From an uncultured virus (IMG/VR IMGVR_UViG_3300049259_000045) (taxonomy: Duplodnaviria; Heunggongvirae; Uroviricota; Caudoviricetes): a stretch of DNA of 29,734 nucleotides. The position numbers and the translations under genes are program-made. How positions within the stretch are numbered: position 1 is the stretch's first letter; each line of letters starts with the position of its first letter. The stretch is taken from IMG/VR virus record IMGVR_UViG_3300049259_000045, one strand, 5' to 3'. The notes under the pieces are model-generated. The model was given only the letters and a program-made list of their open reading frames with translations, was not told the DNA's origin and did no database searches. This document shows positions 3,930 to 25,133 of the stretch, one piece after another.

Positions 3930-4379
3930 TCACCAATCGGTGCTGGACTCGCGATCTTGGACCGCTTTGTTTGCTTCCTCGTCGGATCGACGTGCGGCAG
4001 CCGTCAGCTCGTCTGACGCGGTCTTGGGGGACTTGGCCTGACCTAGGTCGTCCAGTCCGGCCGCTACCTTCCGGGCGATCTCGCGATCTATCCCATTATA
4101 CACTGTGACCGCCCAGCCGAGATCTGCAGCGTGATGAGAGGCGGTGGCCACAATCTCCGTGTCGGACAGCTGAGGGTCATGGAACGATCTGGTTACGATG
4201 TCCTCATTGACGCCAGCCTCGATCAAGAACGACTTGAGTTTGGCGTCATGTCCGGGAGCGTAAATCCCGAACGTCGCCGATGTACACCCGGTGGTTTTGC
4301 CGGACTGAGTCCGAAACATACTGCACTGACAGGGTCGAAGTTCCTTCGCCAACCTTCTCAGCTCCTCGGGCCTGTTCAT
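3930..4379 (-). CDS. PGHDAKLK-family putative Zn-binding protein, copy 1
   Basis: PCQC...TGC...YAPGHDAKLKSFLI. Confidence 0.85.
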   Translation of the reverse strand: MNRPEELRRLAKELRPCQCSMFRTQSGKTTGCTSATFGIYAPGHDAKLKSFLIEAGVNEDIVTRSFHDPQLSDTEIVATASHHAADLGWAVTVYNGIDREIARKVAAGLDDLGQAKSPKTASDELTAAARRSDEEANKAVQDRESSTDW

Positions 4380-4771
4380 TTAGGGGGCATCTCCGACGGC
4401 AGCGGCTTCTTGACGTTGGCCGTATTCTGGTTGGATTCGGATACTCGATCGACCAACTTCTTGTACTCGGCCTCGGTGTGGGCGCCCTCGGCCTTACCGG
4501 CCTCCACCACCCTGTATAGTTCCTCTACCCGCTGGTTTGCGGCTTTCAACCGATGCAGCGCCAAATTTCGGGCGTTATCGGCGGATATCACCGCCACCTG
4601 ATTTTGCAACATGGCCTCAGCCAGCTCGTCGCGAGCCGTGCGCGCGGAGTCTCGTTCAGCCGTGACCTGCTTCAACTCCGCGCGCAACGACTTGATTTCG
4701 GCGATAAGTTCCTTCACCCTGTCCGACGCGCGACGTCTACCATTCCCCCTGAACCACCGGTTGAACCGCAC
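4376..4771 (-). CDS. Coiled-coil protein
   Basis: Heptad-rich sequence; GTG 4771 just after upstream stop with GGAGG RBS. Confidence 0.7.
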   Translation of the reverse strand: MRFNRWFRGNGRRRASDRVKELIAEIKSLRAELKQVTAERDSARTARDELAEAMLQNQVAVISADNARNLALHRLKAANQRVEELYRVVEAGKAEGAHTEAEYKKLVDRVSESNQNTANVKKPLPSEMPPK

Positions 4772-4775
4772 TGCC

Positions 4776-5093
4776 TTACGCCTCCTGTGCCTCGGCGCGC
4801 CGTTTGTCACGGGACTCCTTGACATGCTTCTTGAGCCGGTGGTTGCCCACAAGGAACTTCTCGTTGAGCATGTTGCACCCAAGGGCTTCGGGATCCGGCA
4901 ACAGGCCAGCGGCCCAGAGAACTTCCTTGAGTCCGGTCCTGGCTGCGGCTCGGTTCCTGGGGTTAGCCGCCAGGGCCTGCGCTGCCAGTGCCAGGCTGGC
5001 TGTTCCCGCGTCAACATCATCGACTGCGGGAACGTCCGACTCGTCCCAATCTTCGCTGATCAGTCCGACCAGAACCTCGGGAACTTCGGTCAC
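4776..5093 (-). CDS. Hypothetical protein
   Basis: Start overlaps upstream stop; operon context. Confidence 0.7.
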   Translation of the reverse strand: MTEVPEVLVGLISEDWDESDVPAVDDVDAGTASLALAAQALAANPRNRAAARTGLKEVLWAAGLLPDPEALGCNMLNEKFLVGNHRLKKHVKESRDKRRAEAQEA

Positions 5094-5530
5094 TAGTTGG
5101 CCTGCTCCCGCTCGATGTCGAACACCAGGTCAACCAGCTGGTGGACGAGGTTGCGGGAAAAGTCCTCGTCAACCTCCACGACCTCGGCAGCCGGAGGAAC
5201 CGTGGCGATGATGGTACCGTCAGCGTTGACCGCCGACACCGCTCCGTTGATGTCCGTCTCGATGGCGAACGCCATGAACCCGGAGTCGTGGGCGGTGTAC
5301 CGGTGCGGGGTGCCCGGCTCGAACCCCGGGGTCTCCTCGATCGTCGGACGCAGCGGAAGCACCTTGACGCCGATCGGGCTCAGCTCGATGTTGATCTCCT
5401 CGGCCACCAAGTTGGGGTCGGTGGGGCTGTCGGTGAAGTGGTACGACCACTGGTCGGCGTCAACCACCGCTACCAGGTGATGCACGGGACTACCGACTAC
5501 CGTCGACACCGAAGTGTTCTGGTCCGCCAT
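5093..5530 (-). CDS. Hypothetical acidic protein
   Basis: GAGGA RBS, own promoter, GC3-rich codons. Confidence 0.8.
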   Translation of the reverse strand: MADQNTSVSTVVGSPVHHLVAVVDADQWSYHFTDSPTDPNLVAEEINIELSPIGVKVLPLRPTIEETPGFEPGTPHRYTAHDSGFMAFAIETDINGAVSAVNADGTIIATVPPAAEVVEVDEDFSRNLVHQLVDLVFDIEREQAN

Positions 5531-5577
5531 TGTGTTCCTCTCCGTGGTGCGAGGGACACCCCCCGCTCAGTACAACG

Positions 5578-5629
5578 ATCCTATCACACAACGCTGCCCC
5601 CTCGCAAGACTTCGTGCGAGGGGGCAGCG
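5578..5629 (-). promoter_or_regulatory. Promoter fused with upstream hairpin
   Basis: TTGCGA(5607-5602)-N18-TAGGAT(5583-5578); 15-bp stem 5592-5606/5615-5629. Confidence 0.75.
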
Positions 5630-5642
5630 CTAACCGGGCGGG

Positions 5643-5879
5643 TCACGGATACTTGATTCCCATCTCCTTGATGAGTCGGAGGCCGTCAGCCAGAGTTAGT
5701 TGATTCATCCGTCGCGTGGCCTCCGGTTCGACCAGGACCTCGGTGCCCAAGGGAATCTTGGCGCCGTCCTGGTCGAACCTGTACGACTCGAATTCTCGCC
5801 GACCCTTGCCGTCCTCGGTTGGCTCCATCGCCGTTACCCGAAATCGAGTTCCGTCTTCCATCCGGTAAATGAAAACCAT
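5643..5879 (-). CDS. Hypothetical protein (78 aa)
   Basis: GAGGAG RBS, own promoter and hairpin. Confidence 0.75.
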   Translation of the reverse strand: MVFIYRMEDGTRFRVTAMEPTEDGKGRREFESYRFDQDGAKIPLGTEVLVEPEATRRMNQLTLADGLRLIKEMGIKYP

Positions 5880-5907
5880 GACAGCTCCTCACTGATTTGT
5901 TAGTCCT

Positions 5908-5937
5908 ATTTTACCACGGTCGACAGAGACCGCACAA
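5908..5937 (-). promoter_or_regulatory. Promoter
   Basis: TTGTGC-N18-TAAAAT with extended TG. Confidence 0.7.
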
Positions 5938-5941
5938 GCCG

Positions 5942-5973
5942 GAGGCCCGACCTCGTGTTGACGGTCGAGCCTC
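5942..5973 (-). terminator. Hairpin (GGCCCGACC family)
   Basis: GAGGCCCGACC-N10-GGTCGAGCCTC. Confidence 0.65.
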
Positions 5974-5986
5974 ACCTCGCCCCGGA

Positions 5987-6529
5987 TCACTGGGCGATGG
6001 CCGGAACTACCGCAATCGGCTTCATTCCGTTCGCTCCCTTGGCCGCCAGAGCCGCGCTGCTGTGCCAGGAACCGATGACCGTCAGACCATCGCTGAACGT
6101 GTAAACCGCCGCGTGGGTGTAGGTCTTGGTCTTGCTGGTACGAGTCTCCGTGATGTCCCCGTAAGTGGCCGAGAAGGTGGTTCCACGGCCCTTCTTGGGG
6201 GCGGGAACGGCCTCAGCGGCACCCTTGGCGGCCTCGGTCTGGCCAGCCGCCTTCCGGCCCTTCGCGATGCTCTCCAAGACCTTCGCGGCGAACCCAAACT
6301 CGGCGGCTGCCTTCTCGGCAGTGTACTCGCCCTTCTGACCGAACACCAACACCGGCTGACCCGCCACTCCTGCGCGGATCAGAAGACCCTTGAGCTTGGC
6401 GTCATGCCCGGGGGCGAACACGCGACCGGTGTCGGCCTCGCATCCGGTGTTCTCGCCGGTAACTGCGTTGGTAAACGTCTGGCACTGGCAAGGGTAGAGG
6501 TTGTCATTGAGGCTGTTGGACTTCGTCAT
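5987..6529 (-). CDS. PGHDAKLK-family protein, copy 2
   Basis: PCQC...TGC...FAPGHDAKLKGLLI; AGGGAG RBS. Confidence 0.9.
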   Translation of the reverse strand: MTKSNSLNDNLYPCQCQTFTNAVTGENTGCEADTGRVFAPGHDAKLKGLLIRAGVAGQPVLVFGQKGEYTAEKAAAEFGFAAKVLESIAKGRKAAGQTEAAKGAAEAVPAPKKGRGTTFSATYGDITETRTSKTKTYTHAAVYTFSDGLTVIGSWHSSAALAAKGANGMKPIAVVPAIAQ

Positions 6530-6549
6530 TTTGTCTCCCTCGTCGTCGT

Positions 6550-6586
6550 TAATACAATTAAATCACATCAAACAGGACCAACACAA
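6550..6586 (-). promoter_or_regulatory. Class A promoter
   Basis: TTGTGT-N18-TTTAAT within TTGATGTGATTTAATTGTATTA. Confidence 0.8.
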
Positions 6587-6606
6587 CCCCCTACATCAAC
6601 ATAGCT

Positions 6607-6641
6607 GAGGCCCGACCCCCCTCCGCTTGGGGTCGGGCCTC
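6607..6641 (-). terminator. Hairpin (GGCCCGACC family)
   Basis: GAGGCCCGACCCC-N9-GGGGTCGGGCCTC. Confidence 0.75.
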
Positions 6642-6650
6642 GCTGGCCGG

Positions 6651-7211
6651 TCAGACCTGGCTGAACTTGGTGGTAGTCTGGCTGACGCCCTTCTTGTCCG
6701 TGTAGGTGAACTGCGGACCAACCGCCGGGCTGTCGGTCAGGGTGCCCGTGTAGGTCCAGCGTCCGACCTTCGCGGTCACGGTCGGCTTGGCCTCCGCCTT
6801 GGGCGCGTCCGCGTTCATCTTCGCGGCCTTGGCCTGACGCTTGGCAACGTCTGCGTCAACAACCTCATCGAAGGTCTTGGGGGTGGTCGCGGCCAGCTCG
6901 CGGGTCGCCTTGCGGTTGGCCTTCGCGACCTGCTTGGCCTTGCCGTTCTTGATACCCTCCATGACCTTCGAGTAGAAGCCGAACCGGCCGGAGACCTGGG
7001 CGGAAGTCAGCTCACCCGAGATTCCGTCGCTGATCATCTGGTCCTTGATGCCCGCGTTGATCAGAAGACCCTTGAGCTTGGCGTCGTGACCAGGCGCGAA
7101 CAGGCCCTTCGTGTTGGCGGTGCAACCCGTGTGCTCGCCGGTGCTGAGGTTGGTGAAGGCGGAGCAGATGCAGGGCTTGACGGCGGAAGCGGCTTTCGCG
7201 GTGTTCGACAT
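6651..7211 (-). CDS. PGHDAKLK-family protein, copy 3
   Basis: PCIC...TGC...FAPGHDAKLKGLLI; C-terminal AKVGRWTY...FTYTDKKG domain. Confidence 0.9.
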   Translation of the reverse strand: MSNTAKAASAVKPCICSAFTNLSTGEHTGCTANTKGLFAPGHDAKLKGLLINAGIKDQMISDGISGELTSAQVSGRFGFYSKVMEGIKNGKAKQVAKANRKATRELAATTPKTFDEVVDADVAKRQAKAAKMNADAPKAEAKPTVTAKVGRWTYTGTLTDSPAVGPQFTYTDKKGVSQTTTKFSQV

Positions 7212-7251
7212 TTTGGGCTCCTTGGTTCAGTGGGCGGTTCCCCCCGCCCTG

Positions 7252-7288
7252 TAATACAATTAAATCACATCAACACTCCAACGCGCAA
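7252..7288 (-). promoter_or_regulatory. Class A promoter
   Basis: TTGCGC-N18-TTTAAT within TTGATGTGATTTAATTGTATTA. Confidence 0.8.
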
Positions 7289-7307
7289 CCCCTGCCGCAC
7301 ACACGCT

Positions 7308-7337
7308 TCGGCCCGACCTCCTCAGGAGGTCGGGCCG
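7308..7337 (-). terminator. Hairpin (GGCCCGACC family)
   Basis: CGGCCCGACCTCCT-C-AGGAGGTCGGGCCG. Confidence 0.75.
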
Positions 7338-7352
7338 TGGGCGCTTGGCCGA

Positions 7353-7886
7353 TCAGACCAACTTGAACTTGCGGACCGTCTGGACCCGCCCCTTCTTGTC
7401 CGTGAACGTGAACTCGCCGTTGTCCACGGTGCCCTCGTACGTCCACCGACCGATCTTGGCCTTGACGACCTCGGGGACCTCGACCGGAGCGGGCTCCTGG
7501 TCGGCGGTCACGATGCCCGCGTCCTCGGCCAGCTTGCGCTCGGCGGTCTTGCCCTTCGCGGCCTTCTTCTCCGCCTTGGCCTGCGCCTTCTCGATTCCGC
7601 GCCGGATGCCCTCGGTGACCAGGTGGCCGAAACCGAACTGGTAGGCGACGGATTCCGGGCTGACCAGCTCGCCGGACGCCAGCCGCACCAGGTCACCGGC
7701 GATTCCGCGCCGGATCAGCTCGCCCTTGAGCTTGGCGTCGTGGCCGGGGGCGAACGTCCGCTTCGTGCCCATCCGGCACTGGGGCGCCTTCTCGTCGTCG
7801 CCGAAGTTCACGAAGGTGAAGTTGTTGCAGGCGCAGAGGGTGACACCGGACTCGGTACCAACGGTGTTCGCGGTGAGGTTCGTCAT
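7353..7886 (-). CDS. PGHDAKLK-family protein, copy 4
   Basis: LCAC...QC...FAPGHDAKLKGELI; C-terminal AKIGRWTY...FTFTDKKG domain shared with copy 3. Confidence 0.9.
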   Translation of the reverse strand: MTNLTANTVGTESGVTLCACNNFTFVNFGDDEKAPQCRMGTKRTFAPGHDAKLKGELIRRGIAGDLVRLASGELVSPESVAYQFGFGHLVTEGIRRGIEKAQAKAEKKAAKGKTAERKLAEDAGIVTADQEPAPVEVPEVVKAKIGRWTYEGTVDNGEFTFTDKKGRVQTVRKFKLV

Positions 7887-7935
7887 CTGGACCAGCTCCT
7901 TTTTTCCGGGCTTGGGGGCTGTTCCCCCTTGCCGC

Positions 7936-7972
7936 TAATACAATTAAACCACATCAACGGTCCAACGCACAA
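7936..7972 (-). promoter_or_regulatory. Class A promoter
   Basis: TTGTGC-N18-TTTAAT within TTGATGTGGTTTAATTGTATTA. Confidence 0.8.
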
Positions 7973-7984
7973 CCCCCTTTGACA

Positions 7985-8002
7985 ATGTGATGTACGTCAC
8001 AT
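7985..8002. promoter_or_regulatory. Palindromic operator, CRP-family consensus
   Basis: ATGTGA-TGTACG-TCACAT (TGTGA-N6-TCACA) between divergent promoters. Confidence 0.55.
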
Positions 8003-8042
8003 CCGCTAGCCTCCTCACACAAAAAAGGGGAAGACCCGGTAA

Positions 8043-8072
8043 TTGTGCTGGGACTGCTGGTAGTGTTTTACT
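8043..8072 (+). promoter_or_regulatory. Promoter for the plus-strand mini-operon
   Basis: TTGTGC-N18-TTTACT; TGTTTTACTAGG shared with the promoter at 17360. Confidence 0.6.
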
Positions 8073-8102
8073 AGGAGCGTAGCAGAGAGGAGAGGTCGGA
8101 AA

Positions 8103-8387
8103 ATGGTGAAGCTCGTCAACCCCGGGGTTCTCCCGGAAAGCCGACTGGCGGAGATGTCGCCGGATCGGGCAATTCGATACCTGGAGAACTGGCACCGAAC
8201 CTGGGAGATCGTCAACCCGGACAAGATTGCTGGCCCCACGTTCGCCACCGAGCGTGATTTGAATCACAGGCACGTGTGGCACCTGGATACCAGCAAATTT
8301 CACCCCAGGTTGATCGACAGATGGTTCTGCCGGGTTTGCCAAGCTAACACTTTTGATGACCCTCACGCAACTGAGGAGACAGCATGA
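8103..8387 (+). CDS. Hypothetical protein
   Basis: GGAGAGG RBS; first gene of plus-strand operon; CxxC near C-terminus. Confidence 0.7.
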   Translation: MVKLVNPGVLPESRLAEMSPDRAIRYLENWHRTWEIVNPDKIAGPTFATERDLNHRHVWHLDTSKFHPRLIDRWFCRVCQANTFDDPHATEETA

Positions 8388-8527
8388 CGAACCAGGAAAT
8401 GCAGGACCGCGAGGACAAGTGGGCGGACTTGATCGAGCTGGTCAACGCGGGCAGCATGACGCTTCGCGAGGCCAACGACGAGTTCAGTGCGTGGGCGGCC
8501 AAGTACAAGAACTCGGTGAACGCCTGA
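8384..8527 (+). CDS. Small hypothetical protein (47 aa, MTNQEMQDREDKW...)
   Basis: Not in ORF track; GAGGAG RBS, ATGA overlap upstream, TGATG overlap downstream. Confidence 0.7.
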   Translation: MTNQEMQDREDKWADLIELVNAGSMTLREANDEFSAWAAKYKNSVNA

Positions 8528-8679
8528 TGGCCGGGATGCTGGCCGATAGCCGCGACTACCCGGGATTCGACCAGGAGTGGGCTAACGGCAACGCGATCCG
8601 CCGGATGATCCGGCGCAAGGTGAAGCGTCAAGAAGCCAACGCAGTCCGACGCGCGATCAACGAGGAGCGTTCACAGTGA
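8527..8679 (+). CDS. Small basic protein (50 aa, MAGMLADSRDY...)
   Basis: TGATG coupling upstream, GTGA overlap downstream. Confidence 0.65.
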   Translation: MAGMLADSRDYPGFDQEWANGNAIRRMIRRKVKRQEANAVRRAINEERSQ

Positions 8680-9074
8680 ATGTCGTCTGGATTTTGGAAC
8701 AGATGAACGTGGTAGGAACTGACGACTACATGCGCATCGGAGTCTACGCGGAGCCGCATGACGTCCTGGACGATCTGGCGTTGATCGACCTGGCCCGGGA
8801 CTGGGCCACGCGGGGAGACCTGCGGGTAGGGGTAGACGAAGACCAGTACCTGATGTGGTTGGAGAAGGGATCCGACCGCGTTCAGCTCACCCCCGAACGC
8901 CTCGGCCCGAACACCCCGGAACATGAGATGGTGCTCACCGATCACCACCTTCGTGAACTCCGGCGGACGATGGCGGACCTGATGCACTCGATCAGCACCT
9001 CACCCGGAACCAACGCCCACGCGCCTCTCGGCGGATCGTGGCAGTTCGTACCGGACCCCATGACCGAGTTCTGA
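8676..9074 (+). CDS. Hypothetical protein
   Basis: GAGGAG RBS, followed by hairpin. Confidence 0.75.
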   Translation: MNVVWILEQMNVVGTDDYMRIGVYAEPHDVLDDLALIDLARDWATRGDLRVGVDEDQYLMWLEKGSDRVQLTPERLGPNTPEHEMVLTDHHLRELRRTMADLMHSISTSPGTNAHAPLGGSWQFVPDPMTEF

Positions 9075-9087
9075 CGGCAGACAGCGA

Positions 9088-9122
9088 GCGACCCCCGACC
9101 AGATGTACCGGTCGGGGGTCGC
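9088..9122. terminator. Bidirectional hairpin between convergent genes
   Basis: GCGACCCCCGACC-N9-GGTCGGGGGTCGC. Confidence 0.75.
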
Positions 9123-9134
9123 GGCTTGTCCGGC

Positions 9135-9935
9135 TTACGCCGCGTGTCGTTCAGCTCGGTGGCGTAGATCCCTGTCAGGCCAGCGGGCACGCAGGTAAGC
9201 ACCCCAGTCCGCACGTTCAGCGGAGGTCAGCTGAACCTCTCCGCACATGTCGTGCACCGCGCGAATGTTGTCGATCATCTGCGTGTGACTGACCGGCCTG
9301 GGGAACGGCAGGATGAAGTTCTCTCCAGACGGAGCGGGACAGGCTCGGTACCTTCCTTCAAAAACGTTGACGTTCCAGCGATCCATCCTGGCTCGGATGT
9401 CCAGATCGTGCAGTTGGGCGGGCAGCCATACCCGCGCCGACGCTGGCTTATGAAAGTGCTCGTCCCCCGTGCTGACACCGGCGGTGTTGTCCTCGAACGG
9501 GTGAGGCCACCCCATTTGTTTGATGACCTGGAGGGACCAGACGCGAGTCTCACGCTCGCCAGGTGTGAAGTCCCGCAGAAGACCTATCTCGGGAATTACG
9601 TCATTGCCCCCGATGTATCGCCCGATCCTGGGGATGTCTACGTGTCGATGTACCCCGGGCACGGTTCCCGCAGGGATGATTAGCTGACCCCACGTTGTGG
9701 CCAGATCATCGAGCAGATACCTGGAGTACCCGATATACCAGTCCGGCTTGACAGCCCAGTGCCCGATTTCGTGCAGGGAGTGCCACCAAGTCCCGTAGGA
9801 TCGGTTGCGTTCGGCCGGAAACGGTATATCGATGTACGCGCACAGTTCCAGCAGCTCGATATGACGCTCATCGAGCTGATGAGGTCCGTCAAACGCAGGA
9901 AACATGTGCATCAAGCTGAATGTCGGCAACGACAT
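9135..9935 (-). CDS. Putative zinc metalloprotease-like protein (HExxH)
   Basis: LHEIGHW motif plus downstream E (GERETRVW); 24 bp after traB stop. Confidence 0.6.
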   Translation of the reverse strand: MSLPTFSLMHMFPAFDGPHQLDERHIELLELCAYIDIPFPAERNRSYGTWWHSLHEIGHWAVKPDWYIGYSRYLLDDLATTWGQLIIPAGTVPGVHRHVDIPRIGRYIGGNDVIPEIGLLRDFTPGERETRVWSLQVIKQMGWPHPFEDNTAGVSTGDEHFHKPASARVWLPAQLHDLDIRARMDRWNVNVFEGRYRACPAPSGENFILPFPRPVSHTQMIDNIRAVHDMCGEVQLTSAERADWGAYLRARWPDRDLRHRAERHAA

Positions 9936-9959
9936 GTTACTTCTGTTCCTCTTCCCTGT

Positions 9960-17316: not shown

Positions 17317-17359
17317 TCCTCGTTCTAACTCCTAACTGAGTGAGGCGGGTGTGCCCCCT

Positions 17360-17389
17360 AGTAAAACATACTCAGCGGGTACTACACAA
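17360..17389 (-). promoter_or_regulatory. Promoter
   Basis: TTGTGT-N18-TTTACT with extended TG. Confidence 0.6.
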
Positions 17390-17390
17390 G

Positions 17391-18089: not shown

Positions 18090-18098
18090 TTGCTGGCC

Positions 18099-18815
18099 TT
18101 ACTTGTAGGACGGGAACTGCCTATCCACCTGCTTGGCCAGCCTGCGCGCACGACGCGCATCTGACGTCCCCTGAATCGACCGGAGCGTATCGACCAAGCC
18201 GCCCTGCTCCACCACGTAGAATGTGGAGTCGATTTCTATCCAGCCCCCGGGATGCGAACCCCGGTCGATACGAGCGCCGTCGAGCACTAATATCGAAATT
18301 ACGTGAACCCCGAGAGCGTCCCGAACTCGCGAGGTTTCCCACCTGATCGTGTTGACGTTGTCGGTTTTGCACCACGGACCGTAGTACAGATCGTTGCCGC
18401 GCATGCGTACCGGCGCCTTGTTGGCGTGCCAAGCCTTAGTGTCCCCCACTATGACAGCCTGGCCGGACGGGTGAACCCACACATGATCAAGGTTAGCTTT
18501 GGATCGCGGGATGGACCTATCGTCAAACAGGTACCAGCCGTCCCGCCCCAGCCGCCGGACGATCTTCCCTGTACGGGCCTCACCGGCTGCCCCCTGGCGC
18601 CAGCGCTGCCCTACCTCCCGCACGCCACGGAGACCTACCGTGGCCCCTCCGGCGACGCCGAGAACGGCCCCTGCTGCTCCAGCCCCCGGATTGTACGAGA
18701 GGCCCAGAAGACCCCCTCCGACGGCTCCAGCTATCACCCATCCTTTCGCGCTCTTGACTTTGTCGGTTGTCAGTTGCCTGGCCCTGGCCCTGGCAGAAGA
18801 ACCGGCCTTACCCAC
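18099..18815 (-). CDS. NERD (nuclease-related domain) membrane protein
   Basis: Two TM helices then GAAGEART...DDRSIPRSKANLDHVWV...DTKAW PD-(D/E)xK-type motif. Confidence 0.85.
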   Translation of the reverse strand: MGKAGSSARARARQLTTDKVKSAKGWVIAGAVGGGLLGLSYNPGAGAAGAVLGVAGGATVGLRGVREVGQRWRQGAAGEARTGKIVRRLGRDGWYLFDDRSIPRSKANLDHVWVHPSGQAVIVGDTKAWHANKAPVRMRGNDLYYGPWCKTDNVNTIRWETSRVRDALGVHVISILVLDGARIDRGSHPGGWIEIDSTFYVVEQGGLVDTLRSIQGTSDARRARRLAKQVDRQFPSYK

Positions 18816-18838
18816 TTCTACCCCTCCTTAAATACGAC

Positions 18839-18875
18839 CGACCCCCCGGAGCGAATGTGCCGCCTCGGGGGGTCG
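18839..18875 (-). terminator. Hairpin
   Basis: CGACCCCCCG...CGGGGGGTCG downstream of stop at 18897. Confidence 0.6.
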
Positions 18876-18896
18876 ATTCGGTTGTGTGCGCGTCGC

Positions 18897-19577
18897 TTAG
18901 AAAAGCGACTCGTCGTCGGACCCGTTGGCGTCCGCGTTGGTCTCGGCCGAAGTGGCGCCCTTCGCGTCGGCGGTGGCCTGAGCCGCCGCAGCCGCGTCCT
19001 TGGCCTTCTGTTCGGCCGCAACCTTCTTCGCGGCCTCCTTCTCGGCCTTGGCCTTCTCGGCAGCCGCCTTCTTCTCGGCCTTGACCGCGTCGGCCTTGGC
19101 CTTCTTGTCGGCCTTCTCCTTCTCGCGCTCCGCCTTGGCCGCGTCGCGGGTGGCCGCACCGGCAGCCTTGGCGTCGGCCTCGGCCACCGCGCGAGCGATG
19201 CCGTCCCGGACCTTGGGGCCGAAACCGTACTCGTTGGCCGCGTCCTGCGCGCCCATCTCGATGTCCTCGTCGCCGACCCGCTTGTAGACGGACTCGCCGA
19301 CCGCGCCGAGCTTGATCAGGTGGCTCTTGAGCTTGGCATCGTGGCCCGGAGCGAAGTTGCCGCCGGTCGTCTGGGTGCAGGGGATCAGCTCCTCCAGCAC
19401 CGCCTCGCCGTCGACGTCCACGACCTTGCTGTACAGGCTGCACTTGCAGCGGCTCGGAACCTTGGGCTCCTTGGCCGGGGTCGCGGGGGTGACGGCCTCG
19501 GTCGCTTCGGGGGAAGTGCTCTCGGTCGCGTCCGACTCGGCCTGCTCGACCTCGGGCGCCTCGACTTCGGTGCTCAT
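18897..19577 (-). CDS. PGHDAKLK-family protein, copy 5, with Ala/Lys/Glu-rich tail
   Basis: RCKC...PC...FAPGHDAKLKSHLI; KAKADAVKAEKKAAAEKAKAEKEAAKK tail. Confidence 0.9.
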   Translation of the reverse strand: MSTEVEAPEVEQAESDATESTSPEATEAVTPATPAKEPKVPSRCKCSLYSKVVDVDGEAVLEELIPCTQTTGGNFAPGHDAKLKSHLIKLGAVGESVYKRVGDEDIEMGAQDAANEYGFGPKVRDGIARAVAEADAKAAGAATRDAAKAEREKEKADKKAKADAVKAEKKAAAEKAKAEKEAAKKVAAEQKAKDAAAAAQATADAKGATSAETNADANGSDDESLF

Positions 19578-19622
19578 CTGGCTTGTTCTCCTTGTTAGGG
19601 GGTATTTCTTGCTTGTATCCCG

Positions 19623-19690
19623 ATTCTATCACACCAACCGGGGGTTACACAAGTGGGGCGCGGTACCCGGTTGCCCGAGCCCGCGCCCCA
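19623..19690 (-). promoter_or_regulatory. Class C promoter with adjacent hairpin
   Basis: TTGTGT-N18-TAGAAT; stem TGGGGCGCGG/CCGCGCCCCA 19654-19690. Confidence 0.75.
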
Positions 19691-19700
19691 TCTTGTCAGG

Positions 19701-20081
19701 TCAGCGAACGGTGTGTCGCTGCGCCCACTTGAGCGGAGATTCGAGCACCACCGTGGCGGTTCCCGCCAACGACAGCGACATCAGCGGCCACAGGAAGTTG
19801 CTGACGCCCTGCTGGTGAAGGTACCACCCGGCTGCTCCGCCCAGCACCACCGCCGCGATGGTCTCCACCACCACGTACAGGCTGACCGCCCAGTTCACGT
19901 ACCGGATGCCCGCCTTCTTGACCACGTCGACGTCCACCGCGTTCACGCTGATGTGCGGCCGGTCTCCGTTGTACAGGTAGACCTTGGTTCGGCTGGCGAC
20001 CGTGGCTACCTTGTCGATCTGCCACAGTTCCTGCGTGTCCTTGACTCGGATGATGTCTCCGGGACGGACGAAATTTGCCAC
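19701..20081 (-). CDS. Membrane protein with N-terminal KOW-like segment
   Basis: VRPGDII N-terminus, two C-terminal TM helices; GGAGG RBS. Confidence 0.75.
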   Translation of the reverse strand: MANFVRPGDIIRVKDTQELWQIDKVATVASRTKVYLYNGDRPHISVNAVDVDVVKKAGIRYVNWAVSLYVVVETIAAVVLGGAAGWYLHQQGVSNFLWPLMSLSLAGTATVVLESPLKWAQRHTVR

Positions 20082-20093
20082 TTTTTACCTCCG

Positions 20094-20558
20094 TTACGCG
20101 GCCAGCGCCATCGGGCGGCTGGCCCATTCCAGGTCAAAAGCCGACTCCCACAGGAGGTCGGCGAGGGGAGCGTTTCCGTGCGAGTCTGCGCGGTCGGCTT
20201 GATCCATCAGCTTGCCGGTGATCAGGTCCATCACGTCCATCGGGCCGAGGTCGTCGGACAACTCCATCGGGGTGGTCTGCTCTTCGTGGCCGATGACCTC
20301 GAACTTAGCCGACCGAGAGTGGATGACGTAGCCGCTCAGTCGGTCCAACCGGAACGACTTCTCGATGTTGTCTTCATCCAGGTCCCGACCCACGATCGAG
20401 ATGTTGCCGTCCTGGCTGACCTTGGCGTCGGTCGGCTCGATGTGCCGGGTGCGGGTCTCCTCACCCGGCTTGGTGTACAGGAACGTGATCCGGTGGCCGC
20501 GCTCGGACGCACGCAGGAAGTGGACCAACGTCCAGTACTCGCTGCGGATCTTGCGCAT
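20094..20558 (-). CDS. Stand-alone WYL-domain protein
   Basis: ITFLYTK...RTRHIEP...IVGRD...KSFRLDRL; ATG 20558 with GGGAGG RBS. Confidence 0.85.
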   Translation of the reverse strand: MRKIRSEYWTLVHFLRASERGHRITFLYTKPGEETRTRHIEPTDAKVSQDGNISIVGRDLDEDNIEKSFRLDRLSGYVIHSRSAKFEVIGHEEQTTPMELSDDLGPMDVMDLITGKLMDQADRADSHGNAPLADLLWESAFDLEWASRPMALAA

Positions 20559-20595
20559 TCGGTGCCTCCCGGATCGTCCTCGTTCTTGTAGTACC

Positions 20596-20668
20596 ATTCT
20601 ACCATGGCAGTAGGAGCCCCCACAAGTTGCCGCCCCTGACCGGATCAGCTGGTCAGGGGCGGCAACTT
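20596..20668 (-). promoter_or_regulatory. Class C promoter overlapping hairpin base
   Basis: TTGTGG-N18-TAGAAT; 18-bp stem 20624-20641/20651-20668. Confidence 0.8.
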
Positions 20669-20672
20669 TGGG

Positions 20673-20867
20673 TCAGGTCCGTTCGTACGGTCCTAACTGG
20701 CGTTTGGTCGCGGCAGTCATCAACTGCATCAGGTCTTCGAGGTACTGCTCGGGGTGTTCGCCGGTCGGCTCCAGTCGGGCCAGCTCGGTCCCGTCGGAGC
20801 CGATCACCACGTAGTCCCCCGACTCGTCAACACGAACCTCCAGTAACATTCCAACGGTGGGGGACAC
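20673..20867 (-). CDS. Small hypothetical protein
   Basis: GTG 20867 with GAGGAG RBS (or ATG 20849). Confidence 0.6.
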   Translation of the reverse strand: MSPTVGMLLEVRVDESGDYVVIGSDGTELARLEPTGEHPEQYLEDLMQLMTAATKRQLGPYERT

Positions 20868-20868
20868 G

Positions 20869-21408
20869 TCAACGCTCCTCGGACAGCGAATTGGCCCAAT
20901 CGGCAAGAGACCGGAAGTCGGACGCCAGCAGGCCGAGACTCGGGTTTACCCAATGGGGCATGCCGAACTTCCCGCAAGTGCGCTCAATCAAGTCCTTGTC
21001 GGCAACACCGATCTCGTCATCCACCCATGCAAACGGACGACCATCGGCGTACCGGATAACGTCCTCAGTCTTGAAGTACACTCCGTTGGCGTACCGATAA
21101 GCGTACGGGTCGGACCACTTGATGGCCGGGATGGTCGGCAAGCCGATGTTGGGCCCGATGAATTCGTTGGCCTCGTCCTCCCAGGTGGTGGCCCACACCA
21201 AGTCAAACGGCAGCCGGAGCAGTTCGGCTCCGTGGCCGGGGTTCAGCCACACTCGCAACAGCTTGCGATTCAGGTCGGTCCAACGGATGTTGTTGGGTCC
21301 GATTGTCGGGTTGAGCCGGTGAGTCTGATATCCGGCCGGTCGGCGACCAGCGCTGTTGGCCCGAGGGTTGAGTGGTCCGTCTACGTCGATGAACAGCAGC
21401 GGCTTCAC
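20869..21408 (-). CDS. HAD-superfamily protein (Swiss-Army-Knife RNA-repair-associated HAD type)
   Basis: LLFIDVDGPLN, VWATTWEDEAN, K, FAWVDDE motifs; GTG 21408 overlaps upstream stop. Confidence 0.85.
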   Translation of the reverse strand: MKPLLFIDVDGPLNPRANSAGRRPAGYQTHRLNPTIGPNNIRWTDLNRKLLRVWLNPGHGAELLRLPFDLVWATTWEDEANEFIGPNIGLPTIPAIKWSDPYAYRYANGVYFKTEDVIRYADGRPFAWVDDEIGVADKDLIERTCGKFGMPHWVNPSLGLLASDFRSLADWANSLSEER

Positions 21409-21785
21409 TTCGGGAACCTCTTTCCGGGCAGGGCGGGATGGTTGGCGCCCATGCACACCTGGCTTCGGTGCAGGTGCGGAGCGGCTTTCTTACCCTCGTA
21501 AGAAACGTCAACCAACCTGCCGCACAGCGAGCAGCGGTAGCATCGGACCATCGCAATATGGGTCATCTGAGACGACCATTGGGCAACCCGAACTTCCGGG
21601 TTGTCCGGACCGGTGTGCCGGGAAAAGTCCTCCCCAGCCAACACGGTGTACTCGAAACCCCAGCGAGTCTCTTCGACTCCGGTGATTTTAGCTGTTCCGC
21701 CGATCAGGGACCGAGCCCACTCCTGTCCAACGTGGAAAACCCGGTCCCCGACCTCCAGCTTGGCGTCATGAGCTGGCACGGACAC
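21405..21785 (-). CDS. Hypothetical protein, SH3-like N-terminus and C-terminal Cys/His cluster
   Basis: LEVGDRVFH; CSLC...H...C; AGGAGG RBS. Confidence 0.7.
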   Translation of the reverse strand: MSVPAHDAKLEVGDRVFHVGQEWARSLIGGTAKITGVEETRWGFEYTVLAGEDFSRHTGPDNPEVRVAQWSSQMTHIAMVRCYRCSLCGRLVDVSYEGKKAAPHLHRSQVCMGANHPALPGKRFPK

Positions 21786-21803
21786 CTCCTCTCTGTTGTA
21801 CCC

Positions 21804-21847
21804 ATTCTATCATGGGTGTGGCCCCCGGCACAATCGCTGGGGGCCAC
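21804..21847 (-). promoter_or_regulatory. Class C promoter fused with hairpin
   Basis: TTGTGC-N18-TAGAAT; stem 21818-21829/21836-21847. Confidence 0.8.
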
Positions 21848-21863
21848 CGACGGAACGGGCTGT

Positions 21864-22070
21864 TTAGAGGACCTTGCCGGTCTGGTTGAAGTGGCGGATC
21901 GTCAGGGAGGCGTTCGAACGGCGCTTGGCGTCCAGGGCGGAGAGGGTGCCCGCCCGGTTCAGCTTCGCGTTGATCTCGTTCAACGTGCTCTGCGCGAACT
22001 CGACGCGCTTGCGGCTGGAGCGCTCAGCGGGGAGGAGCCGGGTGATCTGAGCCTCGGTGACGTTCTGCAT
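21864..22070 (-). CDS. Small basic hypothetical protein (68 aa, MQNVTEAQ...)
   Basis: AAGGAGCACAAAATG start context. Confidence 0.8.
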   Translation of the reverse strand: MQNVTEAQITRLLPAERSSRKRVEFAQSTLNEINAKLNRAGTLSALDAKRRSNASLTIRHFNQTGKVL

Positions 22071-22097
22071 TTTGTGCTCCTTCGTTGTTCCCCGACC

Positions 22098-22137
22098 TTG
22101 TAAAACAATTATAACATGTCGGAGCACATTAACGCAA
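22098..22137 (-). promoter_or_regulatory. Class B promoter
   Basis: TTGCGT-N18-TATAAT then TGTTTTACAA. Confidence 0.85.
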
Positions 22138-22155
22138 CCCAGTTCGGCAATTCGA

Positions 22156-22398
22156 TCAATGCGATCCTTCGAACTGGGCTGATGACCACGTGAAGCTGAC
22201 GATCTGAACCATCCGGGGGTCCAAGTCGGGGTCGATGTGATCGAGCGCCCACGCGATAGACGAAGCTTCCACGTCGTCCTCGGTGAACGGACCTGACACG
22301 CTTCCCGACCCGTTGCTCTGGCCCAGTTGAAGCTCTCCGTACTCGTTGCTGATGCTGAGTTCGACGTGCCACACGAACTCGGTTACCTCGTTGCCCAT
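22156..22398 (-). CDS. Small acidic hypothetical protein
   Basis: GGAGG RBS, own promoter. Confidence 0.75.
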   Translation of the reverse strand: MGNEVTEFVWHVELSISNEYGELQLGQSNGSGSVSGPFTEDDVEASSIAWALDHIDPDLDPRMVQIVSFTWSSAQFEGSH

Positions 22399-22433
22399 GA
22401 CGTGTCCTCCCCAATCCGGCCTGTGTTAGTACC

Positions 22434-22477
22434 ATTCTAACACGCTGCTGCCCCCGGCCACAATCACCGGGGGCAGC
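22434..22477 (-). promoter_or_regulatory. Class C promoter fused with hairpin
   Basis: TTGTGG-N18-TAGAAT; stem 22447-22457/22467-22477 with the -35 in the loop. Confidence 0.8.
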
Positions 22478-22491
22478 TGACCTGCAGGCTG

Positions 22492-22899
22492 TCAGTGGTC
22501 GAACGACCGGTCGGCGAGGATGCGGAACAGGTCGTTGGTGCCACCCTCGTCGGGTGTGTCCCACTTCCCGCGAGCCAACTCGCGGCCGGTCGAGTCCTCC
22601 GTGACCAGGTTGCCGTAGCCGTCCGTCACGAACGTCAGGACGTGGAACCCGCCGTTGCCCGCGTTGATGGTCATGGGCTCGACCCTGACGTCCTCGTTGC
22701 GAACCGCGTGCGGGCTGAGCTTGTCCTCAAGGGCTTCGGCCAGCAGCTTGGACAGCAGCTCGTGAGGGGTCACACCCGCTGCCTTGGCGACATGCTTCAC
22801 GGTTCGGGCGGTGGCCCCCGTGAGTCGTCCGTCGAAGTTCACGAACTCCAACGCTTCGGGCAGCTCGGTGTCCGGAGTCGTCTGGTTGGCGTTGTCCAC
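22492..22899 (-). CDS. Hypothetical protein, possible ribbon-helix-helix N-terminus
   Basis: GTG 22899 with AAGGAG RBS; TVKHVAKAAGVTPHELLSKLLAEAL resembles RHH helices. Confidence 0.7.
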   Translation of the reverse strand: MDNANQTTPDTELPEALEFVNFDGRLTGATARTVKHVAKAAGVTPHELLSKLLAEALEDKLSPHAVRNEDVRVEPMTINAGNGGFHVLTFVTDGYGNLVTEDSTGRELARGKWDTPDEGGTNDLFRILADRSFDH

Positions 22900-22938
22900 G
22901 ATGCGCTCCTTCGCGGTCAGGGAGCCGGGTGCCCCCTC

Positions 22939-22989
22939 TACAACAATTAAAACATGCCTCGACCCCGGAGGCAACCCCCGGGGTCGAGG
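22939..22989 (-). promoter_or_regulatory. Promoter (A/B hybrid) fused with hairpin
   Basis: TTGCCT-N17-TTTAAT then TGTTGTA; stem 22957-22968/22978-22989 with the -35 in the loop. Confidence 0.75.
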
Positions 22990-22993
22990 ACGA

Positions 22994-23659
22994 TCAGAAC
23001 CCGGCCACCTCGCGGAAGTAGTGGTAGGCCACGTTGTAATCGGCGTTGTCGATGGTGGTCGTCCGCAGCTCGGTCTTGTCGCGGAGCCACGCTTTGGCGG
23101 CTGTGGTGAACTCCTCCAACGCGGCGGCTTCGCCGACGAAGCTTGCACCGATCGGCTCTTGGCTGTTGCGCTGACCATCCGCGCGCTGCAGGTTCCGCAT
23201 CACGGCCTTGGTGGCGGAACCCTCGCCGCGAGCCTTCTTCTCCGCGCGGTCGATCCCCTTCGCTACCTGGATCGAGAACCCGAAGTCGCGGGCAGCCGCG
23301 ATGCTGTGCTCATAACCACCGAACATCGGGTAACCCCAAGCCTTGATCAGGATCGACTTGGCCTTGGCGTCGTGCCCGGGAAGGAACTTCCGGCCGTTGC
23401 CGGGGGTCCGGGTGGTGTCGCAACCGGTGTGCACAACCTCGCCATCCTTCCGAAACCCGAGACTGGCGCACGCGCACAGGTTGTGCGGGGTAAGGTCGCG
23501 GACCGGCACGTCCACCCAACCGGTCGGGGTGTCGTGCGAGAACGAGGGCAGGAGTTCCAGGCTGACGACCTGATTGCCGGACGGCATGTCCACCGGCTCA
23601 GTGCGAACCCATCCGATGGTGCCGTACACGGTCTTGACCACGGTCCCGATTTCGAGCAT
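22994..23659 (-). CDS. PGHDAK-family protein, copy 6, with extra N-terminal SH3-like domain
   Basis: LCAC...TGC...FLPGHDAKAKSILI; N-terminal EIGTVVKT..GTIGWV. Confidence 0.85.
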   Translation of the reverse strand: MLEIGTVVKTVYGTIGWVRTEPVDMPSGNQVVSLELLPSFSHDTPTGWVDVPVRDLTPHNLCACASLGFRKDGEVVHTGCDTTRTPGNGRKFLPGHDAKAKSILIKAWGYPMFGGYEHSIAAARDFGFSIQVAKGIDRAEKKARGEGSATKAVMRNLQRADGQRNSQEPIGASFVGEAAALEEFTTAAKAWLRDKTELRTTTIDNADYNVAYHYFREVAGF

Positions 23660-23681
23660 TTCTGGCCTCCCTTGTTGCTGT

Positions 23682-23754
23682 TAACACAATTAAATCACAC
23701 CAGAACGGTAGAACGCAAGTCCCCCCGCCCGTTGACCTTGGGCGGGGGGACTTG
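23682..23754 (-). promoter_or_regulatory. Class A promoter overlapping hairpin base
   Basis: TTGCGT-N18-TTTAAT within GTGTGATTTAATTGTGTTA; stem 23716-23730/23740-23754. Confidence 0.8.
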
Positions 23755-23764
23755 AAGTGTGTGA

Positions 23765-24055
23765 TCAGGCGGAAACGGCGGCCTGAGCGTCGAGGTAAAC
23801 CGGAAGGTCGCGCTCCAGCATCTTCGGGCACTTCTTCTGAACGTCCGCCGGGATGGTCTTGCGGGGGTCGCTGGTCGCGATTCGGCCAACAACTGCCTGG
23901 AGAAGCGTGGTGATGTCCTGCGGCTGGCTGGCCATGTCCATCTTGGTGGTGCCCGAAGAGTGCTTGATGGTGTATCGAACCCGGGTGTCTCCGGCAATCT
24001 GAACGGCGGTCATCGTGAAGTTTCCGAACTGCGCGGTCCCGGTGGTGTTCGACAT
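23765..24055 (-). CDS. Hypothetical protein (96 aa, MSNTTGTAQF...)
   Basis: AAGGAGCCGAAAATG start context. Confidence 0.8.
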   Translation of the reverse strand: MSNTTGTAQFGNFTMTAVQIAGDTRVRYTIKHSSGTTKMDMASQPQDITTLLQAVVGRIATSDPRKTIPADVQKKCPKMLERDLPVYLDAQAAVSA

Positions 24056-24092
24056 TTTCGGCTCCTTGTTCCCGAGGGCGGTTTCTCCGTCC

Positions 24093-24166
24093 TTGTAAAA
24101 CAATTATAACATGCGAAGGCACGTTAACGCAAGTCCCCCCGACCAGCTCGGTCGGGGGGACTTGCG
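24093..24166 (-). promoter_or_regulatory. Class B promoter overlapping hairpin base
   Basis: TTGCGT-N18-TATAAT then TGTTTTACAA; 17-bp stem 24128-24144/24150-24166. Confidence 0.85.
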
Positions 24167-24176
24167 GGGGAGCCGG

Positions 24177-24440
24177 TCAGAAGATCACGGCGAGTGTGGC
24201 CTGCTCGCGCGTCGGACGGTGAGGGCCCCACCCGAGGGCGTTCGGCTTGAGGAAAACCCACTTGCTGGAACCGGTCTTGGTCACCCAACCGATGTGGGTC
24301 CACTCCGCCGGACCGAACGCGTCAGCGGACGGCGCCCAGTGGCCGAGGACGTCGGCAGTCTTCTTGACGAAAACATCGAAGTCGCCGACGTTCGCGGGGT
24401 GTCCGTTGACGGTCTCAGCCTTCTCGAAGCGAATGTCCAC
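24177..24440 (-). CDS. Hypothetical protein
   Basis: GTG 24440 with GGAGG RBS; the ATG at 24488 overlaps a -10 box. Confidence 0.7.
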   Translation of the reverse strand: MDIRFEKAETVNGHPANVGDFDVFVKKTADVLGHWAPSADAFGPAEWTHIGWVTKTGSSKWVFLKPNALGWGPHRPTREQATLAVIF

Positions 24441-24486
24441 GGGGACCTCCAAGGTGGGGGCGGGCAGGGTGCCCGCCGTTGAGACC

Positions 24487-24516
24487 ATTCTACCACGTCA
24501 ATTCAGTCCCGCACAA
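24487..24516 (-). promoter_or_regulatory. Class C promoter, -35 inside the upstream gene's 3' end
   Basis: TTGTGC-N18-TAGAAT with extended TG. Confidence 0.7.
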
Positions 24517-25133
24517 GCATCGTCCCCGGTTCCGTTAGAGGAACTGGGGACGGCGTAAGCGGCCTTGTCCTCGTCGGTGTGCTGGTCAGCCCAGACCAGG
24601 CTCATGTCCGCACCGCATTCCGGGCACTCCAGGTCATCCGGCCTGGCGGTGTCGTGCTCGCACTCCGGCTCGTCCGGAATGGTCACGGAGGGGGTGATCG
24701 TGGCCTTGATCTTGCCGGACTCCAACGCCTTCTTCTCCTTGGCCGCGTCACGCTCGGCTTTCTTGGCGGCCTTGACCGCTGCCCGCTCCTGCGCCCGGAC
24801 GATGCCCGCAACCACCATGTGCCCGAATCCGTAGCGCTTGGCGTGGCCGACCGCGTCATCGCTGACGGCCACGCCGCCCTCGTGCCGACGGATCTCGTGG
24901 CCAAGCAGTTCGTGCTTGATCAGGAACGACTTGAGCTTGGCGTCGTGGCCAGGCGCGAAAGTGTTGCGGGTGTCCTGGGTGCAGTACGTCTCCCAGGAGT
25001 CGTAGTCACCGTTGGCCAGGCTCTCCTCGGTGAGCTGGGCGCTGTCTAGGGCGTCGAACTTCTGGCACTCGCACGGCAGGGGTTCGTTCTTGTCCGCGTC
25101 AGTCGCCACGGTCACTGCGGTGTTCTCGGTCAT
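24498..25133 (-). CDS. PGHDAKLK-family protein, copy 7, with C-terminal Zn-ribbon
   Basis: PCEC...YC...FAPGHDAKLKSFLI; tail CEH...CPECG. Confidence 0.9.
   Translation of the reverse strand: MTENTAVTVATDADKNEPLPCECQKFDALDSAQLTEESLANGDYDSWETYCTQDTRNTFAPGHDAKLKSFLIKHELLGHEIRRHEGGVAVSDDAVGHAKRYGFGHMVVAGIVRAQERAAVKAAKKAERDAAKEKKALESGKIKATITPSVTIPDEPECEHDTARPDDLECPECGADMSLVWADQHTDEDKAAYAVPSSSNGTGDDACAGLN

Follow-up and report, generated by a model that had tools for sequence, protein, structure and literature searches.

The window analysed here, a stretch of 29,734 nucleotides from an uncultured virus (IMG/VR record IMGVR_UViG_3300049259_000045), is the non-structural arm of a soil Streptomyces-type phage and holds nearly all of its genes on the minus strand; the contig it belongs to measures 91,734 bases. 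An earlier note, made from the letters of the DNA, had picked out seven related genes in the window and proposed that they form a paralog family, in which a constant core with three Cys and one His is combined with swappable flanking modules. All seven open reading frames (ORFs) are on the minus strand and at the coordinates first named; their products, with length in amino acids (aa) and isoelectric point (pI), are as follows.

3930..4379, minus strand: copy 1, 149 aa, pI 5.6; core and a short acidic tail, ending ...STDW
5987..6529, minus strand: copy 2, 180 aa, pI 9.3; core and a beta-rich tail (KKGRGTTFSATY...GSWHSS...)
6651..7211, minus strand: copy 3, 186 aa, pI 9.7; core, Lys/Ala-rich linker and C-terminal beta module (6654-6785)
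7353..7886, minus strand: copy 4, 177 aa, pI 9.1; core, helix and beta module
18897..19577, minus strand: copy 5, 226 aa, pI 4.9; acidic N-terminal extension, core and a long Ala/Lys/Glu tail, ending ...GSDDESLF
22994..23659, minus strand: copy 6, 221 aa, pI 7.0; 56-residue N-terminal extension and a tail with ...AKAWLRDKTELRTTTIDNADY...
24498..25133, minus strand: copy 7, 211 aa, pI 4.8; 27-residue insert in the core, helical linker and a C-x-x-C...WADQHTDEDKAAY tail

Aligned, the seven proteins share a core of about 90 residues. With the residue numbering of copy 1, the positions C17, C19, C32, P42, G43, H44, D45, A46, K47, K49, L52 and I53 are invariant in all seven, as are G88, V93 and I97 further along. 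The spacings given in the earlier note, 12-27 residues from the C-x-C pair to the third Cys and 7-11 from there to the (F/Y)xPGH stretch, were right. Identity among the seven copies is 26-36% over the whole proteins, and the cores are 33-49% identical to that of copy 3. A six-frame profile scan of the window recovered exactly seven cores at profile E values from 2e-15, for copy 6, whose core is the most divergent of the seven (PGHDAKAK), to 1.1e-33, for copy 7. The alignment and the scan agree on a single paralog family, in which the Cys3-His core stays constant and the tails are exchanged.

The differing attachments are real, and each tail is seen again in relatives elsewhere. Tails ending in Trp, like that of copy 1, the start of which overlaps the stop of the upstream ORF at 4376-5020, are found in 6 of 50 family proteins that lack the beta module. 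The tail type of copy 2 recurs in the relatives P0057 and P0161, the tail of copy 6 in P0031 and P0073, the N-terminus of copy 6 in P0138 and P0149, and the HTDEDKA stretch of copy 7 in P0130 and P0132. Against the zinc-ribbon models of Pfam the copy 7 tail gave E values of 0.04-0.7, all below the cut-off. A profile of the beta module, which carries the GRWTY and TDKKG motifs, matches copies 3 and 4 alone (E 6.6e-15 and 1.1e-16), the other five copies being without it.

No two window copies are sisters in a FastTree phylogeny of 44 core sequences, a tree built on a short domain. Copies 1, 3 and 4 instead pair with genes of a single phage, G006 (locus L002): copy 1 has L002:12715-13167 as its partner, and the orthologs of copies 3 and 4 are L002:9833-10492 and L002:8782-9846. 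Copy 5 pairs with L017:9713-10450, with a core identity of 72%, copy 6 lies in a clade with orthologs from six other loci, and copy 7 is placed among orthologs from L023 and L017. Because the window copies pair with orthologs in other phages, the tree indicates that the seven genes are old subfamilies and not a recent local expansion. Related phage genomes hold seven (G006), six (Streptomyces phage Hiyaa), five (G007), five (G008) and two (G009) matches, each number including one weak partial match (gp38 in Hiyaa).

Breadth, fold and database status of the family

The profile search that the earlier note had proposed as a check was run with the core against 1.84 billion cluster representatives; it returned 548 proteins at E <= 0.001, 241 of them at E <= 1e-10, and a chance resemblance is excluded. 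The source names seen among the matches are 'hypothetical protein' or the like, save for a single 'helix-turn-helix transcriptional regulator' and a single 'Lipoprotein'. Of the 150 best cluster representatives, 109 have the beta module (K-x-G-R-W-x-Y ... F-x-Y-x-D ... G). A search with the beta module by itself brought in 73 further proteins, of which 72 also hold the core; the remaining one begins where the core ends. As these representatives and further proteins combine them, the usual form of the family is a core, a charged helix and a small beta module that is confined to the family. The earlier note had correctly placed the GRWTY/TDKKG domain on copies 3 and 4 but had counted it as one attachment among equals, whereas it is the usual C-terminus of the family.

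The linkers of 28 of 327 members contain an acidic-Trp motif, mostly EPEWDD, compared with 3.5 in shuffled linkers. The single-stranded DNA-binding protein (SSB) of host-type genomes has a DDPWA motif in its tail, and this motif and EPEWDD may represent a peptide ligand in common.

An AlphaFold model of the core (pLDDT 92.7, pTM 0.82) places short strands around the C-x-C pair and the third Cys and opens a helix at the invariant His; after this first helix come two more short strand pairs and two more helices. In a full-length model of copy 4 (pLDDT 90.8) the core (residues 15-86) is followed by one long helix (87-122), and the C-terminal module has four strands (140-171). Across 240 members conservation is 100% at the three Cys and at the G, H, D, A and second K of PGHDAKLK, and the C-x-C pair, the third Cys, G-H-D-A-x-x-K and an F, a V and a G in the helices are 94-100% conserved. 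Six further positions, on two helices, are 77-100% Lys or Arg, three conserved basic positions being spaced i, i+4 and i+8 on the last helix of the core. The D of PGHDAK is the sole conserved acidic position in these members. Mean net charge is about zero for the core (-0.3, standard deviation 3.8) and +2 for the beta module. The constant domain as a whole measures some 60-90 residues. As the Cys3-His residues are invariant, the three Cys and one His most likely hold a structural metal ion, probably zinc. In distant members the first Cys pair is replaced by C-x-C-x-C or C-x-H-x-C.

The earlier note could assign the genes to no characterised family, and our searches of the copies against Pfam, NCBIfam and the PDB bear this out. 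With Pfam the seven copies had nothing above cut-off and no match at E <= 1 to SWIM, WhiB or CDGSH. Scans of the seven with NCBIfam and with PADLOC, a library of defence proteins and not of anti-defence proteins, likewise gave nothing above cut-off. Among relatives, Pfam found just one WYL domain and one weak LysW ribbon in 32 long proteins, scattered weak matches to 61 families in 82 proteins, with neither WhiB nor CDGSH among the 25 most frequent of these, and nothing useful in 16 distant members and Hiyaa gp38. The closest likeness by pattern is to the SWIM zinc finger (PF04434, CxCxnCxH): both have a C-x-C followed by an aromatic residue and then a later Cys and a helix-opening His, and both are small modules on varied partners. 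However, the distance from the third Cys to the His is 10-14 residues in the seven copies and one residue in SWIM, and hhalign against 12 SWIM domains from Streptomyces-type genomes gave a probability of 0.3% over 5 aligned columns, so that SWIM was rejected.

Searches by structure gave a similar picture. The PDB yielded 0 matches at E <= 10 in a sequence profile search and a best E of 3.5 for the core model with Foldseek. In a wide structural search (VIA-align) the core reached at best Z 4.1, with a root-mean-square deviation of 2.4 over 58 residues, and none of 48,161 chains reached Z >= 5; the rows for the full-length model were dominated by coiled-coil matches to its helix. For the beta module Foldseek returned weak rows (E 0.1-0.9) to a biotin-ligase C-terminal domain, Tudor-SN and the MscS beta domain. 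The ESM Atlas gave no usable feature match, every structure row having a TM score < 0.5, and a viral structure library returned family members, weak rows from Hiyaa, Ghobes and MeganNoll, and nothing else.

Some entries of the same family are already in databases. A group of phage proteins of unknown function, phrog_5390, matches copy 3 (E 6.5e-6) and copy 4 (E 0.0025), the other five copies having no match to it at E <= 0.01; phrog_5390 and 'hypothetical proteins' of the Streptomyces phages Hiyaa, Keanu, Spocter and Galactica are the same family. Hiyaa gp109 and its counterparts are 44-49% identical to copy 3, in entries without name or function. The motif strings of the family had no match in the literature searched, nor had Hiyaa as a Streptomyces phage, and a literature search on satellites and serine integrases brought up nothing relevant to the family. 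The family, one of actinobacterial mobile elements, is real and unnamed, and matches no named family or solved fold.

Occurrence in PurZ phages and bacterial chromosomes

Three findings add to what was first observed: minimal forms of the module on DNA-handling proteins, a link to purZ, and chromosomal copies adjoining recombinase genes. In phage Olihed a minimal module ends an SprT-like protease encoded directly after a helicase gene, and in phage DrRobert it is at the end of a Cys-rich protein, gp28, three genes downstream of a helicase gene. Hiyaa gp38 (MK279841.1 28863-29399; L085:4864-5400) has a C-terminal minimal module, C-G-C-G-C-G ... F-R-P-G-H-D-S-K-L, and its gene has an HNH endonuclease gene on one side and a helicase gene on the other. 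A weak match of the gp38 type is found once in each of the five related phage genomes. Searching with the gp38 module returned gp38 orthologs only, all unnamed, with 56 of 84 matches 74-97% identical to the module of Hiyaa. The Zn-ribbon protein gp47 of phage Ghobes ends in ...C-V-C-G-C ... Y-L-P-G-H-D-A-R (core profile E 2.3e-7), and its gene is 1.4 kb upstream of purZ. The core is also fused to a WYL domain in two relatives (P0067 and P0226) and to an XRE helix-turn-helix domain in one (P0262), and a WYL gene adjoins a family gene or lies shortly upstream of it at four loci (L033, L035, L017 and L008).

The phage gene purZ serves to make DNA in which 2-aminoadenine (Z) replaces adenine. Taking a match to PF00709 as a PurZ-like gene, we found that 16 of the 24 viral records with the family have one, as do 6 of the 7 records that are at least 90% complete, the exception being classed as a provirus; at 11 of 31 viral loci PurZ is within the same 20-kb locus as the family gene. 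The background among cultured phage records is about 0.4% (193-199 of 50,697). Cultured phage records with the module have a verified PurZ-like gene in 35 of 38 cases, with 3 unchecked and 0 shown to be without it. The five Streptomyces PurZ records (Hiyaa twice, Spocter, Keanu and Galactica) are exactly the five Streptomyces family records. With Ghobes gp47 as query, 33 records match, and the six Gordonia records among them are the six Gordonia PurZ records; PurZ was verified in 21 of 22 matched records of Arthrobacter phages, 2 of 4 of Microbacterium and 1 of 1 of Micrococcus. The module was not detected in Streptomyces phage phiC31, which lacks PurZ, the best whole-genome match of either profile being at E >= 1. 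Among phages, in a census of PurZ-negative genomes made by tblastn with three queries and not by a profile over every genome, the module is confined to PurZ-bearing actinobacterial phages.

Two genes towards the end of the window bear on its own relation to these phages.

26562..27947, minus strand: adenylosuccinate lyase (PurB-like) gene, E 9.4e-62 to solved adenylosuccinate lyases; syntenic with Hiyaa gp76
29227..29715, minus strand: dUTPase-like (Dut-like) gene, placed as Dut-like genes are in PurZ phages

The PurB-like and Dut-like genes are in the order seen in Hiyaa. There they flank the PurA-like (PurZ) gene, which has polymerase I on one side and the Dut-like gene on the other, and the window probably ends 1-3 kb short of purZ. 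G006, the closest relative of the window phage, has PurZ, and we infer that the window is from a PurZ-bearing phage lineage. The known Z gene set comprises PurZ, PurB, a Dut-like protein (DmtZ) and DpoZ. Like these, the module is found together with PurZ-like genes, in many cases at a distance of a few kb; unlike these enzymes, it is non-homologous to them and has no catalytic signature. In an article of 2026 in Nucleic Acids Research, Ghobes and Wayne are treated as phages with Z-containing DNA, and their Dut-like enzymes are shown to hydrolyse dATP and dGTP (PMC12884076). No mention of the module was found in that article or in a second Z-pathway paper, a preprint, as neither 'zinc' nor 'hypothetical' appears as a word in the main text of either (PMC12884076; bioRxiv 10.1101/2025.10.22.683976).

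On bacterial chromosomes 39 loci have one family copy each: 27 in Streptomyces, 4 in Nocardiopsis, 1 in Halostreptopolyspora, 1 in Frankia, 1 in a Tepidiformaceae metagenome-assembled genome (MAG) and 5 weaker ones in Chthoniobacter-type MAGs. A serine recombinase is encoded in 28 of the 39 loci, and by a strict rule at least 18 of the 39 have a large serine recombinase gene directly downstream of the family gene on the same strand. A PrimPol-type gene lies a few kb upstream of the family gene in 23 of the 39. The chromosomal family gene occupies the position expected of an excision helper. At the loci L033-L064 the order is a PrimPol/D5_N or AAA_25 helicase gene, small genes, the family gene and a large serine recombinase gene with DUF4096. 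Four loci were annotated with Pfam, and at three of them the end of the element is beside rpsB-tsf. This conserved integrated element of Streptomyces, Nocardiopsis and Frankia could be a small prophage or a satellite. At L047:9010-12840 one frame of 1276 aa joins a serine recombinase and a PNKP ligase domain (E 1.7e-170), which may be two genes merged by the ORF rule.

Possible roles of the core

We tentatively favour, as somewhat short of an even chance, the reading of the core as a metal-stabilised module that docks on DNA or on the replication machinery, with tails that vary the partners delivered. Under this scenario, the core would dock on DNA or on DNA-replication machinery and the varied tails would bring different partners to the docked core. 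In most members a stiff charged helix and the small beta module follow the core, and other tails substitute for that end in some paralogs. Host RNA polymerase would make the proteins from strong individual promoters soon after infection. An association with DNA is suggested because minimal modules are found on DNA-handling proteins, because the core is fused to WYL and XRE domains, and because basic positions on the core helices are conserved. A possible analogy is with nucleoid proteins of the Lsr2 and H-NS type, which have two domains and bridge DNA. The family would resemble them in its two small domains and charged linker, its place on mobile elements and its predicted early expression; however, the two share no sequence or fold similarity, and DNA binding by the family is a proposal.

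A bolder version, which we regard as improbable, is that the core is a reader of 2-aminoadenine DNA, sensing the extra minor-groove amino group of Z:T pairs. If so, the phage could tell its own Z-DNA from the A-DNA of the host, the seven paralogs would deliver beta module, SSB-like tip, zinc ribbon and other tails to a single kind of DNA, and the minimal forms would do likewise for a protease and replication proteins.

Several observations weigh against docking on DNA, on replication machinery or on Z-DNA in particular. The core is near-neutral and three window copies are acidic overall (pI 4.8-5.6), so that protein docking fits as well as DNA binding. Crude ratios of nonsynonymous to synonymous substitution (dN/dS) for the core, which are limited by saturation and strong codon bias, are only moderately below 1, at 0.10-0.66 in the 25 closest pairs; the 270 usable pairs have a median of 0.66 and reach 1.24 at most. 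The metal could be held as an iron-sulfur cluster instead of zinc. PurZ itself is absent from the 29.7-kb window, its presence in the window phage being deduced from synteny, and a single Gram-negative Z phage that was examined, Vibrio phage phiVC8, gave no match to the module. None of the 39 bacterial loci has a PurZ-like gene within 8 kb of the family gene; therefore, Z-DNA is not required and the family is not confined to it. The link to PurZ could come from a common ancestry of replication modules and not from function. As to expression, the sequence is in four DNA-type soil-metagenome runs of one study, with no RNA run listed.

Some of the same evidence may be read in other ways. The core could dock on protein, the target being one conserved host protein (RNA polymerase or its principal sigma factor, for example) or an SSB partner; the tails would then block or redirect the target, and the PurZ link would be a matter of lineage only. 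The near-neutral core, the three acidic paralogs, the early-type promoters and the excess of EPEWDD-type motifs in the linkers (28/327 vs 3.5 in shuffles) are consistent with this, as are the ends of copy 5 and its orthologs. The end of copy 5, ...SDDESLF, resembles the SSB end ...S(D/E)EPPF (such as ...SDEPPF) in four element-bearing genomes and, like the C-terminal tip of SSB, follows a long low-complexity region, but unlike a full SSB match it is a short motif in one subfamily, the ends of this type (...DDESLF; acidic-x-[LMP]-F) being found in 6 of 50 members without the beta module. Since the minimal forms are on DNA-handling proteins within replication modules, and a conserved basic stripe runs along the core helices, we consider host docking unlikely, though the likeliest of the alternatives. 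Less likely again is that there is no common function and the core is a stable scaffold displaying fast-changing tails, for example as decoys or inhibitors of host defence. The diversity of the tails, the copy number of 2-7 across related phages, the location in a region of small accessory genes and the dN/dS values moderately below 1 would fit a scaffold. However, the subfamilies, tails included, are kept between phages at 55-72% core identity, 73% of the best representatives have the same beta module, and there was no PADLOC match, in a library of defence and not anti-defence proteins.

For the integrated elements, the family protein could be the recombination directionality factor of the adjacent large serine recombinase, with the phage copies as its descendants or ancestors. 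The chromosomal members share the position of factors such as phiC31 gp3 and Bxb1 gp47, being directly upstream of the recombinase and co-oriented with it, and directionality factors such as Bxb1 gp47 are also found in phages without integrases. However, none of the five related phage genomes encodes a serine or tyrosine integrase, yet they hold 2-7 family copies, and we judge this explanation to be very unlikely. A general directionality-factor role for the phage copies was rejected on the same count of 0/5, and a factor of the phiC31 gp3 type was rejected for lack of similarity (best profile match in the phiC31 genome at E >= 1). We give the least credence to the proposal that the Cys3-His site holds an iron-sulfur cluster and that the proteins are redox- or nitric oxide-sensing regulators like the WhiB-like proteins, which are common in actinophages. 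Sites of three Cys and one His can hold 2Fe-2S clusters, as in CDGSH proteins, and the hosts are actinobacteria. Against this, neither WhiB nor CDGSH was matched in Pfam by the seven copies at E <= 1 or appeared in the 25 families shown for the 82 relatives, the spacing in the family is unlike the CDGSH signature, and the C-x-C-x-C or C-x-H-x-C of distant members looks like a small zinc knuckle.

The family may be of interest to the study of Z genomes, which has centred on nucleotide enzymes and polymerases; to our knowledge, the transcription, replication, packaging and discrimination of Z-DNA from host DNA are largely open. The module is a candidate for a non-enzymatic part of Z-genome biology because cultured phages were found to have it only if they are PurZ-bearing actinophages, because its minimal form is joined to DNA-handling proteins, and because it is expanded and matches no family or fold; Hiyaa-like Streptomyces phages have 5-7 copies with predicted promoters. 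Even if the link to Z-DNA proves to be one of lineage only, a family of at least 548 clusters deserves a name, and its position beside large serine recombinases in Streptomyces elements makes it a possible new excision helper for those integrases that serve as genetic tools.

Promoters and neighbouring genes

The earlier note had also given six of the seven copies a promoter of their own, and this is what we found: predicted boxes precede copies 2-7, and no promoter of its own was found for copy 1.

6550..6567, minus strand: promoter box TGTGATTTAATTGTATTA, upstream of copy 2
7252..7269, minus strand: promoter box TGTGATTTAATTGTATTA, upstream of copy 3
7936..7953, minus strand: promoter box TGTGATTTAATTGTATTA with 1 mismatch, upstream of copy 4
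23682..23699, minus strand: promoter box TGTGATTTAATTGTATTA with 1 mismatch, upstream of copy 6
19623..19631, minus strand: extended -10 box TGATAGAAT, upstream of copy 5
25181..25189, minus strand: extended -10 box TGGTAGAAT, upstream of copy 7

The 18-mer TGTGATTTAATTGTATTA has these four matches at <= 3 mismatches and is nowhere else in the window, compared with 0 matches in 100 shuffles; the boxes of copies 5 and 7 have the form TGnTAGAAT. Boxes of the type TGNTANAAT number 17 in the window, all on the minus strand, where 0.43 were expected. They lie in short gaps ahead of most small genes, usually just past a G+C-rich hairpin, an arrangement that predicts a terminator and a promoter of its own for nearly every small gene. 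Since most small genes in the window have boxes too, own promoters are not special to the Cys3-His family. Besides the 17 boxes, four TGATTTAAT variants are found on the minus strand between 2722 and 29197, and many boxes have a downstream run AATTGT..TACAAG in common. Should the DNA of the phage contain 2-aminoadenine, its promoters would be harder to melt, and strong boxes might compensate for this.

Copy 5 is flanked by genes for a NERD-domain protein (18099-18815, E 2.2e-7) and a short WYL protein.

20094..20597, minus strand: WYL-domain gene (WYL E 3.9e-6), two genes upstream of copy 5, with no recognisable helix-turn-helix

Between 9960 and 15000 the window encodes an FtsK/SpoIIIE-like translocase of 710 aa (phrog_31069, E 2.8e-92), followed by a Gly/Pro/Ser-rich protein of 492 aa and a membrane protein of 395 aa, a conjugation-like set; an FtsK-like gene is within 10 kb of a family copy at 11 of 31 viral loci. 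Plus-strand ORFs of 94, 108 and 132 aa (8103-9074), which have no family match, break the minus-strand array between copy 4 and the FtsK-like gene. At the other end, a collagen-repeat protein encoded at 46-804 matches tail-fibre PHROGs (phrog_18350, E 5.3e-32) and marks the beginning of the structural arm at the start of the window.

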